A stretch of DNA of 64,000 bases, taken from sequence record OP172785. One strand, given 5' to 3'. The notes below the pieces were generated by a model that saw only the letters and a list, made by a program, of their open reading frames with translations, had not been told where the DNA came from and did no database searches. Both the position numbers and the translations under genes were made by a program. This DNA is from Escherichia phage ECO07P2. Shown here one piece after another: positions 11,847 to 51,068 of this stretch; position 1 is the stretch's first letter, and the number at the start of each line of letters is the position of its first letter.

Positions 11847-12320
11847 TTATTTGAATGATTTGACGTACTGAATAGAGCCTTTGCTATTCACGAAAGCGAT
11901 TTTACCATTTTTATTATACATGGTAGCAGTACGCTGATAGCCATAAGTTTGCTTACCAGATTGATAACCAACTAATGCAAAATTATCTTCACCCATTTTA
12001 TTCTGTTTAGCACGAATGCGTTCATGACCATGCGCCATAAGAACCTTAGCATCACCAGTTGCAATGGATCTACGAGTTTTTTCATCTTCAACTGTATTAA
12101 CAAAGTCGTCAAATGAATCAAATTTAGCGTGAGATTTATTATACAGTTTTCCATCTACTGCATAATTGTATCCCTGTACATCCATCTCAACTTCTGTACC
12201 ATCATCCAATACAGCAGTGATTTTTTGACCTTTTTTAAATTTCAAAAGATCAGTAAAAGATTCAGCAATAATTTGAGAATTAATAGCTGCCTCAGTAATA
12301 AATTCTTGATATGTTTTCAT
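11847..12320 (-). CDS. capsid-targeting-sequence (CTS) protein, internal-protein-like
   Basis: 157 aa; N-terminus MKTYQEFITEAA is the T4 CTS shared by IPI, IPII, IPIII and Alt and cut by gp21 after Glu. Confidence 0.7.
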   Translation of the reverse strand: MKTYQEFITEAAINSQIIAESFTDLLKFKKGQKITAVLDDGTEVEMDVQGYNYAVDGKLYNKSHAKFDSFDDFVNTVEDEKTRRSIATGDAKVLMAHGHERIRAKQNKMGEDNFALVGYQSGKQTYGYQRTATMYNKNGKIAFVNSKGSIQYVKSFK

Positions 12321-12360
12321 GTTATCCTTTAAATGTAAATAGTTTTATTCTTTAAGTTTT

Positions 12361-12408
12361 GGACAATTCACACGCATGAATTGTCCGTTTCTATATTTAC
12401 CCATTACC
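12361..12408 (-). repeat. copy 2 of conserved intergenic element, with perfect 10-bp inverted repeat
   Basis: ggacaattca-cacgca-tgaattgtcc hairpin (12361-12386) overlapping the 35-bp core shared with 11728-11762. Confidence 0.6.
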
Positions 12409-12427
12409 AGGTTCGAAATCGGCTTTA

Positions 12428-13006
12428 TTAAGAATTACCACGGGCTGCATTAGCAACGGCGTAAGCGTACTGAACATTAGCGTCTTTAAACGTACCTTTA
12501 GAGGTATCTAGTTCTGCCTTAAAGCCGCCTTTAGTCATAACCTCGGCGAATTCTTTACGGAAAGCCATTGCATCAAGGCTTCTCCATGACGATTTGTGCT
12601 TGGCGAATTCAAGACCAGCGTAGTTGACAGCCTTAGCTAATTTATTATCAATAACCCATTTACCAGCTTTAGGCACAAATACCGGGCCTTTCTGTTTGGA
12701 GAATAGTTTTAAATTCCAGCGACGAAGGTCACCGTCAGCTTTAACAAAAGCTGCGTCCAAGTTACTAGCAACAACATCTTGAATATGGCCAAATTTAAGC
12801 CCATCAACTTCAATATTTAGATCAGTACGCCAGCGAAGTCCTTCCCAAGCGAAAGCTTTAAAGTCAGAAGCCTTTGTAGCTAAATACCGTTCAATAGGAG
12901 CTGTTTTAGGGTCAAAGCCGTTTCCTCGGTAAGTCCACTCATCTTTATTAATGCCTTTGGCCTTTTCCACAGAAGCTTCAGTGATAAATTCTTTATAGGT
13001 TTTCAT
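12428..13006 (-). CDS. CTS protein (IPIII-sized internal protein)
   Basis: 192 aa; N-terminus MKTYKEFITEAS; length close to T4 IPIII (194 aa) but identity not verified. Confidence 0.7.
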   Translation of the reverse strand: MKTYKEFITEASVEKAKGINKDEWTYRGNGFDPKTAPIERYLATKASDFKAFAWEGLRWRTDLNIEVDGLKFGHIQDVVASNLDAAFVKADGDLRRWNLKLFSKQKGPVFVPKAGKWVIDNKLAKAVNYAGLEFAKHKSSWRSLDAMAFRKEFAEVMTKGGFKAELDTSKGTFKDANVQYAYAVANAARGNS

Positions 13007-13021
13007 GTGTTTCCTTTATTT

Positions 13022-13336
13022 TTATTCTTTAGGGAAGTTTTTAGAATATGCATCATAAAGCTTATTTCCAATACGGCGGAAAACTCTAGCCGCAAAACGA
13101 TTTTCTGGGTTTTTAATCATGATTTGCATCATATAAGTACCCGCGTCAGAAAGAGCTTCTTCATAGTACCCGTTAATTTCTTTAAGAGTCCTACGTTTAC
13201 CACCAGGACCATCAACAGTGATTTTCCATTTACCTGTAGAAGTGCGACTTGGCGGCTCAACTTGTTCAATCCAGATATAACCGCCTTCTACACGTTGGTT
13301 GGCGGATTCTGCAATAAATTCTTTATATGTTTTCAT
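13022..13336 (-). CDS. CTS protein (IPII-sized internal protein)
   Basis: 104 aa; N-terminus MKTYKEFIAESA; basic small protein. Confidence 0.7.
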   Translation of the reverse strand: MKTYKEFIAESANQRVEGGYIWIEQVEPPSRTSTGKWKITVDGPGGKRRTLKEINGYYEEALSDAGTYMMQIMIKNPENRFAARVFRRIGNKLYDAYSKNFPKE

Positions 13337-13366
13337 TTTTGTTTCCTTGTTTATTTTGATAGAGTA

Positions 13367-13396
13367 ATTATACCATATTAATACTTAAGCGTAAAC
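13367..13396 (-). promoter_or_regulatory. T4-type early promoter
   Basis: gtaaac 13391-13396, attata 13367-13372 (TATAAT), spacer 18. Confidence 0.6.
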
Positions 13397-13452
13397 CGTT
13401 TAAGCTTCACCGCCAGAAATAATTCCGAAGTTGTTAAATTGATACGAGTCAT
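13378..13452 (-). pseudogene. denV: relic of denV (endonuclease V) reduced to 24 codons
   Basis: minus-strand ATG at 13452 behind GGAGG encodes MTRINLTTSELFLAVKLKRFTLKY then stop; first 11 residues match T4 endonuclease V MTRINLTLVSEL as recalled. Confidence 0.5.
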
Positions 13453-13479
13453 AATTTCCTCCAAGTAGTTGATGAATGT

Positions 13480-13509
13480 ATAGTATCAAAGTCCTTGGAG
13501 GAAGTAAAC
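13480..13509 (-). promoter_or_regulatory. T4-type early promoter
   Basis: gtaaac 13504-13509, atagta 13480-13485, spacer 18. Confidence 0.6.
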
Positions 13510-13510
13510 A

Positions 13511-13792
13511 CTATTTTTCTGAAGCGCCTGAAATATATTTTTCAAGACGTTGTTTCATTAGCGAGCCGTTCTTAGCGATTTCTTCTGGTTTATCGCACAT
13601 ACGCAACAAGGCTTCAAGCTTAACGATATCGCTGGTACGTTCAAATTTGCGAGTATCTATCTTACTAGCAAGTTCAGAAATACGTGCTAATAGACTTTCA
13701 GCTTCAACCAAAGCTGCACCTAGCTTAGTTGCAAAGGTGTCAGTAGCTTCGTTAAGAATAGATTCTGATAAAAATTCACTATATGTTTTCAT
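13511..13792 (-). CDS. CTS protein (internal-protein-like, 93 aa)
   Basis: ATG at 13792 overlaps lysozyme stop; N-terminus [11 protein letters not shown]; track start at 13807 is a TTG. Confidence 0.65.
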
Positions 13793-19837: not shown

Positions 19838-20125
19838 TTACCATTTATGATAATACATATTTACGATGCATTCAAGACCCAAAGGATTCTTGAAAATATC
19901 ATATTCAAGAGGACCTTTTTCTGTTTCAATAAAGAAATCAAAATTTACTGTATTAAATTTACGGTCTTCCTTCACTAATTTAACTTGAGAAGATGAACGG
20001 TCAATGTAAACCTTTTCAACTTCAAAACATGTTAAAATGCCATAATCATCAATCAAGGCTTTAGCCGCATCTTGATCATATTTATATCCATTTTCAATGG
20101 ACGATACTTTCGCATAAAGAATCAT
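19838..20125 (-). CDS. hypothetical protein (95 aa)
   Basis: ORF in track. Confidence 0.5.
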   Translation of the reverse strand: MILYAKVSSIENGYKYDQDAAKALIDDYGILTCFEVEKVYIDRSSSQVKLVKEDRKFNTVNFDFFIETEKGPLEYDIFKNPLGLECIVNMYYHKW

Positions 20126-20127
20126 TA

Positions 20128-20532
20128 TTAACCTTTATCAACAATAGTATGTGTATGGGCATTTACAATTTGCCACCAGTCGAAACTATCGCCAAATCGT
20201 TTTGATTTATTGTCTTCAATAATTTGGCGTAATTCATCTTCTGTTTCAGCATACGCAATCAAATCATCATATCCACCGCAAGGATAGTAATTATCGCCTG
20301 CGAACAAAAGAAAATTTACTTTAGATGGGTCTACATAATAATGCTCTTTAGGATATTTAGTTCCTTTCCAATCAGTTACTTCAACATAACGGTAAGAAAA
20401 TCCATTTTTACTTTCAACCCAACTCCACGCTTCAAAAGGAGTATTAAAAACTCTATCAGGTATTAAATTACCTTCAAAATGAGAAGGATTTGCATAATCC
20501 CCAGCATAAACATAATATTCGTTAATATTCAT
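20128..20532 (-). CDS. hypothetical protein (134 aa), Trp/Tyr-rich
   Basis: ORF in track. Confidence 0.5.
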   Translation of the reverse strand: MNINEYYVYAGDYANPSHFEGNLIPDRVFNTPFEAWSWVESKNGFSYRYVEVTDWKGTKYPKEHYYVDPSKVNFLLFAGDNYYPCGGYDDLIAYAETEDELRQIIEDNKSKRFGDSFDWWQIVNAHTHTIVDKG

Positions 20533-20718
20533 TTATTCACCTTTAGAAATTTTATCCATAACGATAGCAATTAAACCAATTAAAAATGCTACTACAAGTG
20601 AAAACACATTTTCTGCTGTAGTTAATAATCCGCATATAAATCCAACAAACATTGAAAAACTAAAAGCAGAAGCAGAAATTGCAATAGCAACATTTCGAAT
20701 TAATTCACAACGTTTCAT
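20533..20718 (-). CDS. small membrane protein (61 aa)
   Basis: two hydrophobic helices in translation. Confidence 0.45.
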   Translation of the reverse strand: MKRCELIRNVAIAISASAFSFSMFVGFICGLLTTAENVFSLVVAFLIGLIAIVMDKISKGE

Positions 20719-20746
20719 TTTATTCTCCTCAGTAGTTGATAGGGTA

Positions 20747-20776
20747 ATAATATCACTACCCCATCTAAAAGTAAAC
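20747..20776 (-). promoter_or_regulatory. T4-type early promoter
   Basis: gtaaac 20771-20776, ataata 20747-20752 (TATTAT), spacer 18. Confidence 0.6.
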
Positions 20777-20786
20777 GGTTTATAAA

Positions 20787-21095
20787 CTATTTTATTCCGC
20801 GTGATGCAATTGTGTTCTGCCGTTTAACACCAGTTTGTTTAAAGTCATGATTGTCGATTTGATCGGTACGAGCAACACCGAATGATGATTTAATCTTAGC
20901 TTTAGATCCTTTAGTTATAGAAATAAACATCTCGGAAGCCCCTTTCTTAAAGTCCGAGGCGATTACTTCAACGCCGTTCTTAGCAAGTGACCTCAGAATT
21001 GCCTCCGCGTACTCATCATCAAGACTCGCCTGAGTATTAATAACGAATGTCTTTGGTGCAGCCGCTTCATTGATAAATTCTTGATATGTTTTCAT
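20787..21095 (-). CDS. CTS protein (internal-protein-like, about 102 aa)
   Basis: MKTYQEFINEAAAPK from ATG at 21095; an upstream in-frame ATG at 21107 would add 4 residues. Confidence 0.65.
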   Translation of the reverse strand: MKTYQEFINEAAAPKTFVINTQASLDDEYAEAILRSLAKNGVEVIASDFKKGASEMFISITKGSKAKIKSSFGVARTDQIDNHDFKQTGVKRQNTIASRGIK

Positions 21096-21129
21096 TTTGA
21101 TTTCCATTTAGTTTTGTTTTGATAGTGTA

Positions 21130-21159
21130 ATAGTATCACAACTAAACCACCGTGTAAAC
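21130..21159 (-). promoter_or_regulatory. T4-type early promoter
   Basis: gtaaac 21154-21159, atagta 21130-21135, spacer 18. Confidence 0.6.
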
Positions 21160-21162
21160 AAT

Positions 21163-21435
21163 TTATTTTAAATAAATTGCATATTTTTTATAACCAGCCG
21201 TCTCGTGACGCAGACCTTTTTCATTAGCAAAGCGTTCAATATTATTAATTTGATTCTGATCAAGTTCTGAAATATCAAATACAAAAAAGTTTCGTTTATT
21301 TCCTAACGTTACATGATTCGTCAAATCAATGTTATAAAGATGATTTATATTATCAATCATAGTCTTAACAGATTTGCTAATTTTTACTTCTTCATTAAGA
21401 GCAGATTCAACGATAAACTCTTTGAAAGTTTTCAT
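21163..21435 (-). CDS. CTS protein at the ipI position (internal protein I-like)
   Basis: 90 aa; N-terminus MKTFKEFIVESA; located just upstream of 57B as T4 ipI. Confidence 0.7.
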   Translation of the reverse strand: MKTFKEFIVESALNEEVKISKSVKTMIDNINHLYNIDLTNHVTLGNKRNFFVFDISELDQNQINNIERFANEKGLRHETAGYKKYAIYLK

Positions 21436-21465
21436 TTTATTTTCCTAATTAATTTTGATGAGGTA

Positions 21466-21495
21466 ATAGTATCACTACCTCATCAACGTGTAAAC
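21466..21495 (-). promoter_or_regulatory. T4-type early promoter
   Basis: gtaaac 21490-21495, atagta 21466-21471, spacer 18. Confidence 0.6.
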
Positions 21496-21507: not shown

Positions 21508-22204
<697 letters not shown>

Positions 22205-22205
<1 letters not shown>

Positions 22206-22918
22206 TATAGTACCTTTAGTGTATTTTTAATTTTAGAAAAAAGTTCTTCAAGAGAACCATCGTTTGTAATTACTAAATCGCCATCACGAATTGGCAATCC
22301 AGCTTCTGTAATATGAGTATCATTGGATTTTTGACCAGGACGAACTACATGAATTACTGTAGCACCCATCGCCCTAGCCGCATCCATTTCATGATCTTGA
22401 CGAGTATCAGGAACGATATAATAATCATAACCTGAGTTAAATTTATCAAGATAATCTAAAGCAAATAATTTTACCCAATACATGCGGTCGAAGTTATTAA
22501 CAATCAAATCCGTACCTAGGGCTTGCATCAGACGACGGACTGACCATTGATCTTCAATATTATTTATAACGTCAGCAATCTTGTTAAATGCTACGAAATT
22601 AACTGCGTCATCAAAAACAAACACACCTTTAATTGGGCTTTTACTATTAAGATAACAAAATGCTTGTTCCATAATCGTAATTACTTCTAATTTAGTCAGA
22701 TTTAAATTAGTCTCACGATCATAGTCAATTCCTTCAAACTCTTTACGAGTTAAGCAAGGATAGTCAGTGTTTGCTACAAATACGCCCCATGCATAAGCCA
22801 ATGCATCTTTAATAGGACCAGCAAGTTGATATTTAACTGCAGAATAATTATTCATGATAAAATCTGCAGTAGTATCTTTTCCACTACGCTTTACACCACT
22901 TAAAAAGATTAGTTTCAT
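22205..22918 (-). CDS. 1: deoxynucleoside monophosphate kinase gp1
   Basis: 237 aa; N-terminal P-loop MKLIFLSGVKRSGKDT as in T4 gp1. Confidence 0.9.
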
Positions 22919-50005: not shown

Positions 50006-50430
50006 TGCTTCTGATCCCTGAAACTCATGAATTAGTTCTCGAGAATGTCGAAGCACTTATTCCTGAAGCACAGGGTCGCTTTGACGAATTGTCTTCTGCT
50101 TTAAATAAAGACGATATAAATACAATTGTCGAGAATATGCTTGATGATGAAACTGATTTAGCGGTTGCATTAGCTTCTATTAATGAAAATATGCCGTTAA
50201 ATGAATTCATCGTTAAACATGTTTCTGCCCGTGGTGAAATTACTCGCACTAAAGATCGCAAAACCCGCGAACGAAATGCATTTCAAACCACTGGGCTGTC
50301 TAAAGCAAAACGTAGACAAATTGCTCGTAAAGCTACCAAAACGAAGATTGCCAATCCAGCAGGTCAATCTCGTGCTCAGCGTAAGCGTAAAAAAGCTCTT
50401 AAACGCCGTAAAGCATTAGGATTAAGCTAA
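50005..50430 (+). CDS. 68: prohead core protein gp68
   Basis: 141 aa as in T4; basic C-terminus. Confidence 0.85.
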
Positions 50431-51068
50431 TGAATGAACCCCAATTACTAATTGAAACTTGGGGTCAACCTGGCGAAATTATTGATGGTGTGCCAATGCT
50501 TGAATCCCACGATGGAAAAGACCTAGGTTTAAAACCGGGTTTATACATCGAAGGAATATTCATGCAAGCGGAAGTCGTCAATAGAAATAAACGTCTTTAT
50601 CCAAAACGCATATTAGAAAAAGCGGTAAAAGACTATATCAATGAGCAAGTTTTAACTAAACAAGCTCTCGGAGAATTAAATCATCCTCCACGCGCTAATG
50701 TTGACCCGATGCAAGCCGCTATCATTATAGAAGATATGTGGTGGAAAGGAAATGACGTATACGGACGAGCTCGTGTTATTGAAGGTGACCATGGTCCTGG
50801 AGATAAATTAGCAGCTAATATTCGTGCCGGATGGATTCCAGGAGTTTCTTCTCGTGGATTAGGTTCATTGACTGACACAAATAAAGGTTATCGTATCGTA
50901 AACGAAGGATTCAAATTAACTGTAGGTGTTGATGCAGTATGGGGTCCAAGTGCTCCAGATGCATGGGTAACTCCTAAGGAAATTACCGAATCACAGACGG
51001 CGGAAGCCGATACAAGTGCCGATGACGCCTATATGGCTCTCGCAGAGGCCATGAAAAAAGCGTTATAA
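50430..51068 (+). CDS. 21: prohead core scaffold protease gp21
   Basis: 212 aa as in T4. Confidence 0.95.
   Translation: MNEPQLLIETWGQPGEIIDGVPMLESHDGKDLGLKPGLYIEGIFMQAEVVNRNKRLYPKRILEKAVKDYINEQVLTKQALGELNHPPRANVDPMQAAIIIEDMWWKGNDVYGRARVIEGDHGPGDKLAANIRAGWIPGVSSRGLGSLTDTNKGYRIVNEGFKLTVGVDAVWGPSAPDAWVTPKEITESQTAEADTSADDAYMALAEAMKKAL

Follow-up and report, generated by a model that had tools for sequence, protein, structure and literature searches.

Ip9 and Ip7, two putative injected inhibitors of host defence, in a recombinant internal-protein locus of Escherichia phage ECO07P2

Introduction

Phage T4 carries a single internal protein (IP) gene, ipI, between 57B and trna.4. At the same position in the DNA of Escherichia phage ECO07P2 (record OP172785), a first-pass annotation made from the sequence noticed two open reading frames, of 102 and 90 amino acids, each with a capsid targeting sequence (CTS), in terms that can be read as IPI accompanied by a second protein. 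The locus raises three questions: to which families the two proteins belong, how their genes came to occupy the place of ipI, and what the proteins might do in the infected cell. We addressed these questions within the window, that is, the whole stretch of 64,000 nucleotides that was analysed, and by comparison with related phage genomes.

IP loci of this kind have been described before. Ip9 and Ip7 were named by Repoila, Tetart, Bouet & Krisch 1994 (EMBO J 13:4181). According to later papers, that study described about ten IP genes at two polymorphic loci, identified by their N-terminal signal, with promoter-containing repeats on their flanks, and proposed that these repeats mediate shuffling and affect host range. 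Ip9, Ip7 and their promoter-flanked arrangement have accordingly been known since 1994. In the GenBank record Z35082 ('Bacteriophage RB15 DNA for Ip5, Ip9, Ip7, Ip8') the four named genes lie between 57B and tRNA.4, and the annotation of RB32 (NC_008515) describes Ip5-Ip9-Ip7 as 'flanked by 43 bp direct repeat'.

Results and discussion

Two internal-protein genes stand in place of ipI

The analysed DNA is a segment of a Tequatrovirus genome. The 1.1-kb stretch around the two genes is 99.3% identical to ECO07P3 and is matched by more than 700 T4-like records. Both open reading frames of the first-pass annotation were found between 57B and the trna.4 homologue, and all genes around them lie on the minus strand (Table 1). 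The T4 annotation, too, agrees with the earlier statement that this phage has only ipI at the site. We consider it very probable that the site is the polymorphic IP locus 1, in which ip9 and ip7 cassettes replace the ipI of T4.

The conserved upstream flank, 57B, is clearly Acb1, an anti-CBASS phosphodiesterase, although PHROGs and many GenBank records still call it 'RNA ligase'. The IP cassettes thus lie directly downstream of a known anti-defence gene.

Table 1. Features of the ip9-ip7 region, other IP-related genes of the window, and homologues in other phages. Positions are those of the window, except where a label and colon precede them; these refer to the phage named in the row.
Feature	Position	Strand	Basis or remark
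gene 1	22205-22918	-	ORF; its homologues in ECO07P3, G4498 and T4 are annotated as dNMP kinase
57A	21963-22205	-	ORF; homologous ORFs annotated tail fibre chaperone in ECO07P3, G4498 and T4
57B / Acb1, conserved upstream flank	21508-21963	-	Pfam PF23474 Acb1, E=2.6e-60; 98% nt identity to T4 57B
P1, early-type promoter GTTTAC-N18-TACTAT, TG-extended -10	21466-21495	-	57B-ip9 spacer
Inverted repeat, 14-bp stem, 4-nt loop, overlaps P1 -10	21455-21486	-	-18.1 kcal/mol, z=-4.0, 0/200 shuffles as stable
ip9, 90-aa internal protein precursor	21163-21435	-	ORF; phrog_7673 'internal head protein'
CTS of Ip9, residues 1-10, MKTFKEFIVE	21406-21435	-	
Dhakavirus-like mosaic block (ip9 body, P2 spacer, ip7 CTS) in Tequatrovirus backbone	21057-21427	-	informative sites
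P2, early-type promoter GTTTAC-N18-TACTAT, TG-extended -10	21130-21159	-	ip9-ip7 spacer; reference copy of the 48-nt repeat family
ip7, 102-aa internal protein precursor	20787-21095	-	ORF; phrog_2667 'internal head protein'
CTS of Ip7, residues 1-10, MKTYQEFINE	21066-21095	-	
P3, early-type promoter GTTTAC-N18-TATTAT, TG-extended -10	20747-20776	-	ip7-trna.4 spacer; closes the cassette array
Inverted repeat, 12-bp stem, overlaps P3 -10	20738-20765	-	-16.1 kcal/mol, z=-2.0
trna.4 homologue, 61-aa predicted membrane protein, conserved downstream flank	20533-20718	-	phrog_1692, E=6e-35; 99.5-100% nt identity to T4 and RB32 trna.4
trna.4, trna.3 and trna.2 homologues	19838-20718	-	ORFs, PHROG matches
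tRNA cluster	below about 19810		ORF-poor; placed by tRNA annotation in ECO07P3, G4498 and T4
CTS-tagged ORF, 93 aa, second IP locus	13511-13792	-	phrog_3499
CTS-tagged ORF, 104 aa, second IP locus	13022-13336	-	phrog_3966
IPIII homologue, second IP locus	12428-13006	-	91% identical to T4 (tblastn)
CTS-tagged ORF, 157 aa, second IP locus	11847-12320	-	phrog_3155
gp21 prohead protease	50430-51026		99.5% identical to T4
Distant Ip7 homologue, Gaprivervirus VR25	L014:1501-1800		other IP locus, near e/denV/vs.8
Distant Ip7 homologue, Klebsiella phage phi1_146043	L015:1501-1806		other IP locus, near e/denV/vs.8
CTS-less Ip9 core, stand-alone, Kagunavirus	L007:2507-2725		
CTS-less Ip9 core, stand-alone, Seuratvirus KS_A3	L008:2992-3216		
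Ip9 core, internal domain, ChubbyThor gp130	L010:692-2743		
Ip9 core, internal domain, vB_EcoM-ZQ1	L009:68-3100		

The two proteins are members of the Ip9 and Ip7 families

Judged by its full-length homology to RB15 Ip9, the 90-aa protein is a member of the Ip9 family. It matches phrog_7673 over residues 1-90 (E=9.4e-56) and shares 78.9% amino acid identity with the ip9 product of Z35082 (RB15), 80% with RB32 Ip9 and 93% with the ip9 product of Dhakavirus VR5. By tblastn it was found in 174 records, and it is called Ip9 in RB15, RB32 and the VR phages. The AlphaFold model of Ip9 has an alpha/beta fold (pLDDT 78).

The 102-aa protein is likewise a member of the Ip7 family on the strength of full-length homology to RB15 Ip7. 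It matches phrog_2667 over residues 1-102 (E=2.7e-42) and differs from the Ip7 proteins of RB15, RB32 and G4498 by 3-4 amino acids, with 3 non-synonymous differences from RB15 ip7. The tblastn search recovered it from 283 phage records, and in several of these it carries the name Ip7. Its AlphaFold model (pLDDT 66 overall) has a ferredoxin-like core at residues 14-72 followed by a conserved, basic C-terminal tail (pI 10.3) of low model confidence. An alternative 106-aa start of ip7, at the ATG at 21107, was rejected: this codon falls within the degenerate Shine-Dalgarno stretch, and all homologues begin with MKT.

Comparison with RB15, RB32 and G4498 by the Nei-Gojobori method gave dN/dS of 0.06-0.07 for ip9, with dS about 1.45, and of 0.12-0.13 for ip7. 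Both genes are thus under purifying selection and maintained as proteins. Distant Ip7 homologues with 43-49% identity were found in the other IP locus, near e/denV/vs.8, of two phages (Table 1), which means that this family is mobile between the IP loci. Throughout the Ip7 proteins, down to 43% identity, the motifs KGS(K/L)xK(I/V)K, (F/W)GV and R(Q/M)NT are kept.

A 77-aa 'ip7 protein' of Escherichia phage OLB35 (P0031) joins Ip7 residues ~29-72, without a CTS, to the last 32 residues of Ip9; this chimera apparently arose by recombination between neighbouring ip cassettes or by a deletion that joined them.

Both precursors carry a capsid targeting sequence

The N-termini of both proteins match the CTS consensus of T-even IPs, MKT(Y/F)(Q/K)EFIxE, and both keep the aromatic residue at position 4, F7, I8 and E10. 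Mutational work on IPIII showed that targeting is controlled by residues 4 and 7 and processing by residues 8 and 10 (PMC9026906). The prohead protease gp21 is encoded in the window, where gp67 and gp68 are also present. Cleavage by gp21 after E10 is predicted for both precursors from these features. The predicted mature Ip9 has 80 aa, about 9.3 kDa and a near-neutral pI of 8.0, and the predicted mature Ip7 has 92 aa, about 9.9 kDa and a basic pI of 9.7. The CTS variants are swapped relative to other phages: here Ip9 begins with MKTFKEF and Ip7 with MKTYQEF, the reverse of the situation in RB15, RB32 and G4498. This exchange fits recombination joints within the CTS-coding sequence.

Similarity to T4 IPI is confined to the targeting sequence

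The reading of the pair as IPI plus a second protein did not hold. When both proteins were aligned to T4 IPI, as the first-pass annotation had proposed, neither proved to be a close paralogue: BLASTP aligned only residues 1-32 and 1-17 (E=0.005 and 0.001, as single comparisons), and there is no similarity past residues 1-12. A tblastn search of the window with T4 IPI gave no match better than E=0.23, so that no IPI homologue was found there, and none of IPII was found in the window by tblastn either. Assignment of Ip9 or Ip7 as homologues of IPI, IPII or IPIII was rejected, as only the CTS aligns. Beyond the first ~12 residues, Ip9 and Ip7 are also unrelated to each other.

Wider searches gave a similar picture. 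Neither protein had a match above threshold in Pfam and NCBIfam or a meaningful match among solved structures by sequence search. In Foldseek searches of the PDB, IPI*, whose two beta sheets lie between N- and C-terminal helices, was not among the best 50 matches of either model, both of moderate quality (pLDDT 78 and 66), its presence in the library being unconfirmed. The PDB matches, all with E>0.01, were generic (ferredoxin-like, ACT and HMA for Ip7; R3H and SepF for Ip9).

What Ip9 and Ip7 share with T4 IPI is the genomic position, a similar size, an N-terminal targeting propeptide, an upstream spacer that is ~96% identical and, presumably, the delivery route. The IPI propeptide, however, has 19 residues and is cut after ITE, whereas Ip9 and Ip7 have the 10-residue CTS of the IPII/IPIII type, with cleavage predicted after I-x-E. 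In this respect they resemble T4 Ip2 and Ip3, CTS-tagged injected proteins with the same type of 10-residue propeptide; those proteins, each directed at one defence variant, are encoded at the second IP locus and, outside the CTS, have no sequence relationship with Ip7 and Ip9.

The second IP locus of the window (11847-13792, minus strand) contains four more CTS-tagged open reading frames, among them an IPIII homologue (Table 1). With the two at locus 1, the phage has six CTS proteins, none of which is IPI or IPII.

The spacers are promoter-containing cassette linkers

Each gene had been described as having a private early promoter. Both promoter copies are present exactly where the first-pass annotation placed them, but a third, P3, follows ip7, and the cassettes are flanked on both sides; the promoters are thus cassette linkers rather than private promoters. 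P1, P2 and P3 form one 48-nt direct-repeat family with 67-79% identity. The window contains 13 copies of the relaxed motif GTTTAC-N17-19-TANNAT, compared with 0.84 expected from shuffling; none of 100 shuffles reached 13.

The spacers carry the flanking element of IP genes, an early promoter with an overlapping inverted repeat in ~70 bp; the outer two inverted repeats are significant, and a degenerate one (-10 kcal/mol, z=-1.25) occupies the middle spacer, between ip9 and ip7. A search for intrinsic terminators found none in the three spacers, and no inverted repeat is followed by a T-run, so these repeats are not canonical intrinsic terminators. The ribosome-binding site of ip7 (GGAAAT) is weaker than those of the other two spacers (AGGAAA and GAGGAG). 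The spacers align with the T4 spacers on both sides of ipI. Identity of the P1 spacer with its counterparts, 57B-ipI in T4 and 57B-ip5 in RB32, is 96-97%, and that of the P3 spacer with those of RB32 and G4498 is 98.5-100%.

The T4 late-promoter motif TATAAATA was not found directly 5' of ip9 or ip7. Late supply of the proteins would therefore need read-through or continued use of the early promoters; by analogy with what is known of T4, we infer that enough Ip9 and Ip7 would be available at prohead assembly. The sole TATAAATA upstream of the two genes on their strand (22561-22568, minus strand) lies inside gene 1.

Similar linkers are known elsewhere. The PeSL (promoter-early stem-loop) cassettes of RB49, phi1 and other T4-like phages (Arbiol et al. 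2010; Comeau et al. 2014) also combine a strong early promoter, a stem-loop and a ribosome-binding site in intergenic positions, flank small non-essential genes and are thought to mediate modular shuffling. PeSL stems, however, are polyG/polyC, whereas the stems here are AT-rich with no terminator-like T-run, and the homology available for exchange at the present locus reaches into the CTS codons, unlike that of PeSL. Classification of the spacers as PeSL cassettes, which have a Sigma70-like promoter and a G/C-rich stem-loop with terminator function, was rejected: the promoter part is present, but such a stem-loop is not. According to Arbiol et al. 2010, the IP-locus elements are analogues, not homologues, of PeSL, with T4 early promoters and weaker AT-rich stem-loops, a description that the AT-rich stems and early promoters found here match.

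The ip9 cassette is Dhakavirus-like in a Tequatrovirus backbone

The combination of cassettes at this locus varies among T-even phages: T4 has IPI only, RB15 has Ip5-Ip9-Ip7-Ip8, RB32 has Ip5-Ip9-Ip7, G4498 has Ip9-Ip7-Ip8, and in Dhakavirus, VR5 has Ip8-Ip9 and MX01 has Ip9-Ip7. The arrangement in ECO07P2 is common to about 45 records, in which at least 80% of the 1.1-kb locus is covered. With RB15, K3 and RB32 it shares the protein families, the order of ip9 and then ip7, the 57B-trna.4 locus and the flanking promoter repeats. It differs from RB15, RB32 and G4498 in that these have Ip5 or Ip8 cassettes beside their Ip9-Ip7, whereas both Ip5 and Ip8 are absent here.

The flanks and the ip9 cassette point to different relatives. 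Identity to T4, RB32 and G4498 is 95-100% for 57A, 57B, the first spacer, trna.4 and trna.2 (89-90% for trna.3), whereas to Dhakavirus all of these flanks reach only 55-80%. The body of ip9 and the spacer between it and ip7, in contrast, are 88-91% identical to MX01 and 82-92% to VR5, but only 64-81% identical to RB32 and G4498, and ip9 itself is a Dhakavirus-type allele, with nucleotide identities of 91% to MX01 and VR5 versus 81% to RB32. Of the informative sites inside the mosaic block, 59 agree with Dhakavirus and 13 with Tequatrovirus, versus 6 and 126, respectively, outside it (Fisher p=3e-31). The switch points fall at about 21439/21427, at the ip9 start and CTS, and at about 21057/21044, just past the ip7 CTS.

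This pattern fits the published shuffling model, in which the block would represent a cassette exchange through conserved promoter and CTS linkers. Each cassette is bounded by an element of ~50-70 bp in which a T4 early promoter overlaps an AT-rich inverted repeat and the conserved ribosome-binding site and CTS codons follow. Such conserved linkers would provide each gene with its own transcription and, at the same time, the homology for recombination by which cassettes would be swapped, added and deleted between phages. The locus is another, clean example of a recombinant ip9 cassette with its junctions in the conserved linkers.

Proposed function of Ip9 and Ip7

An anti-defence role is the standard expectation for CTS-tagged proteins. 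T4 IPI* inhibits the GmrS-GmrD type IV restriction enzyme, and the T4 proteins Ip1, Ip2 and Ip3 are each active against a single GmrSD subtype, a different one in each case and without cross-protection; Ip2 inhibits GmrSD-ECOR21 and Ip3 GmrSD-ECOR17 (Silas et al. 2025, PMC12373910). For Ip7 and Ip9 there is no report of GmrSD inhibition. The test on GmrSD-positive hosts that was proposed in the first-pass annotation has in part been carried out already in the same study, where none of ip4-10 reproducibly inhibited the GmrSD variants of a test panel and an apparent interaction of ip7 with CLS_011 did not recur (PMC12373910, Suppl. Fig. 9). A GmrSD target for Ip9 or Ip7 is thus unsupported.

Within these bounds, packaging, cleavage, injection and an anti-defence role of Ip9 and Ip7 can be inferred as follows. 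The CTS would dock the precursors onto the prohead scaffolding core, and gp21 would cut after I-x-E10 to leave mature Ip9* and Ip7* inside the head. Both would be ejected into the cell with the DNA; we propose that they would therefore act ahead of all phage gene expression. Their most likely role, by analogy with Ip1, Ip2 and Ip3, would be the stoichiometric inhibition of a host defence of the nuclease type directed against the incoming modified DNA. We hold with high confidence that Ip9 and Ip7 are injected, CTS-delivered putative inhibitors of host defence, and it is the delivery mechanism for which the sequence features argue well.

Ip9 and/or Ip7 might instead be mainly structural or DNA-associated head fillers that serve charge, condensation or ejection, have no specific host target and owe their diversity to weak constraint; we consider this unlikely. 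The basic charge of mature Ip7, with its conserved basic tail, would suit such a role, but mature Ip9 is near neutral. About 1000 IP molecules are embedded in the DNA of T4 heads (PMC3012670), a number that agrees with a filler; all three T4 IPs nevertheless proved to be specific inhibitors. The lack of a GmrSD target for ip4-10 is also compatible with fillers, yet the dN/dS values of 0.06-0.13 and the conservation of motifs down to 43% identity argue for specific folded functions, and the Ip9 core that occurs without a CTS in siphophages (see below) cannot be a head protein of this kind there.

That one of the two genes is a decaying or unexpressed remnant, leaving a single functional IP at the locus, is highly improbable: the degenerate inverted repeat of the ip9-ip7 spacer, the weaker ip7 ribosome-binding site and the CTS-less OLB35 chimera, which shows that decay occurs in the family, are set against two intact, full-length open reading frames, purifying selection on both relative to several homologues, retention of all four CTS determinant residues in both, a complete -35 and extended -10 promoter for both and conservation of the pair in about 45 genomes of two genera.

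If Ip9 and Ip7 are injected inhibitors, they belong to the well-known shuffled palette of proteins with which T-even phages disarm host defences at DNA entry and which helps to set host range. What Ip7 and Ip9 inhibit is of real interest to the field and is already under experimental attack; the present window makes the question no easier to approach than the genomes already available.

The Ip9 core occurs without a CTS in unrelated phages

The core of Ip9, some 72 residues long (residues 18-90), was also found without the CTS in unrelated phages, a minor new point beyond the literature examined. In siphophages it forms a stand-alone open reading frame of 72-74 aa (Table 1). In Ackermannviridae an Ip9-like domain lies inside proteins of 683-1010 aa, and a Pfam search with the large Ackermannviridae protein returned no family.

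The presence of the core without a CTS elsewhere suggests that an accessory phage domain already existed and that the CTS was grafted onto it. We offer only tentatively, as a possibility that we regard as less probable than its opposite, that Ip9 was a cytoplasmic domain, probably with an anti-defence function, before the graft of the 10-residue CTS and a short linker made it an injected effector. Under such an origin, Ip9, and perhaps Ip7, would target a non-GmrSD defence that is common to the hosts of very different phages, and the CTS-less relatives would offer an easy route to that target; this would be a modest lead and not a new kind of system.

The family of this domain is small. A HMMER search with the mature domain of Ip9 against 1.8 billion representatives returned only 9 clusters at 50% identity, none of them named, and a profile search found unnamed 72-aa proteins on contigs of ~42-45 kb.
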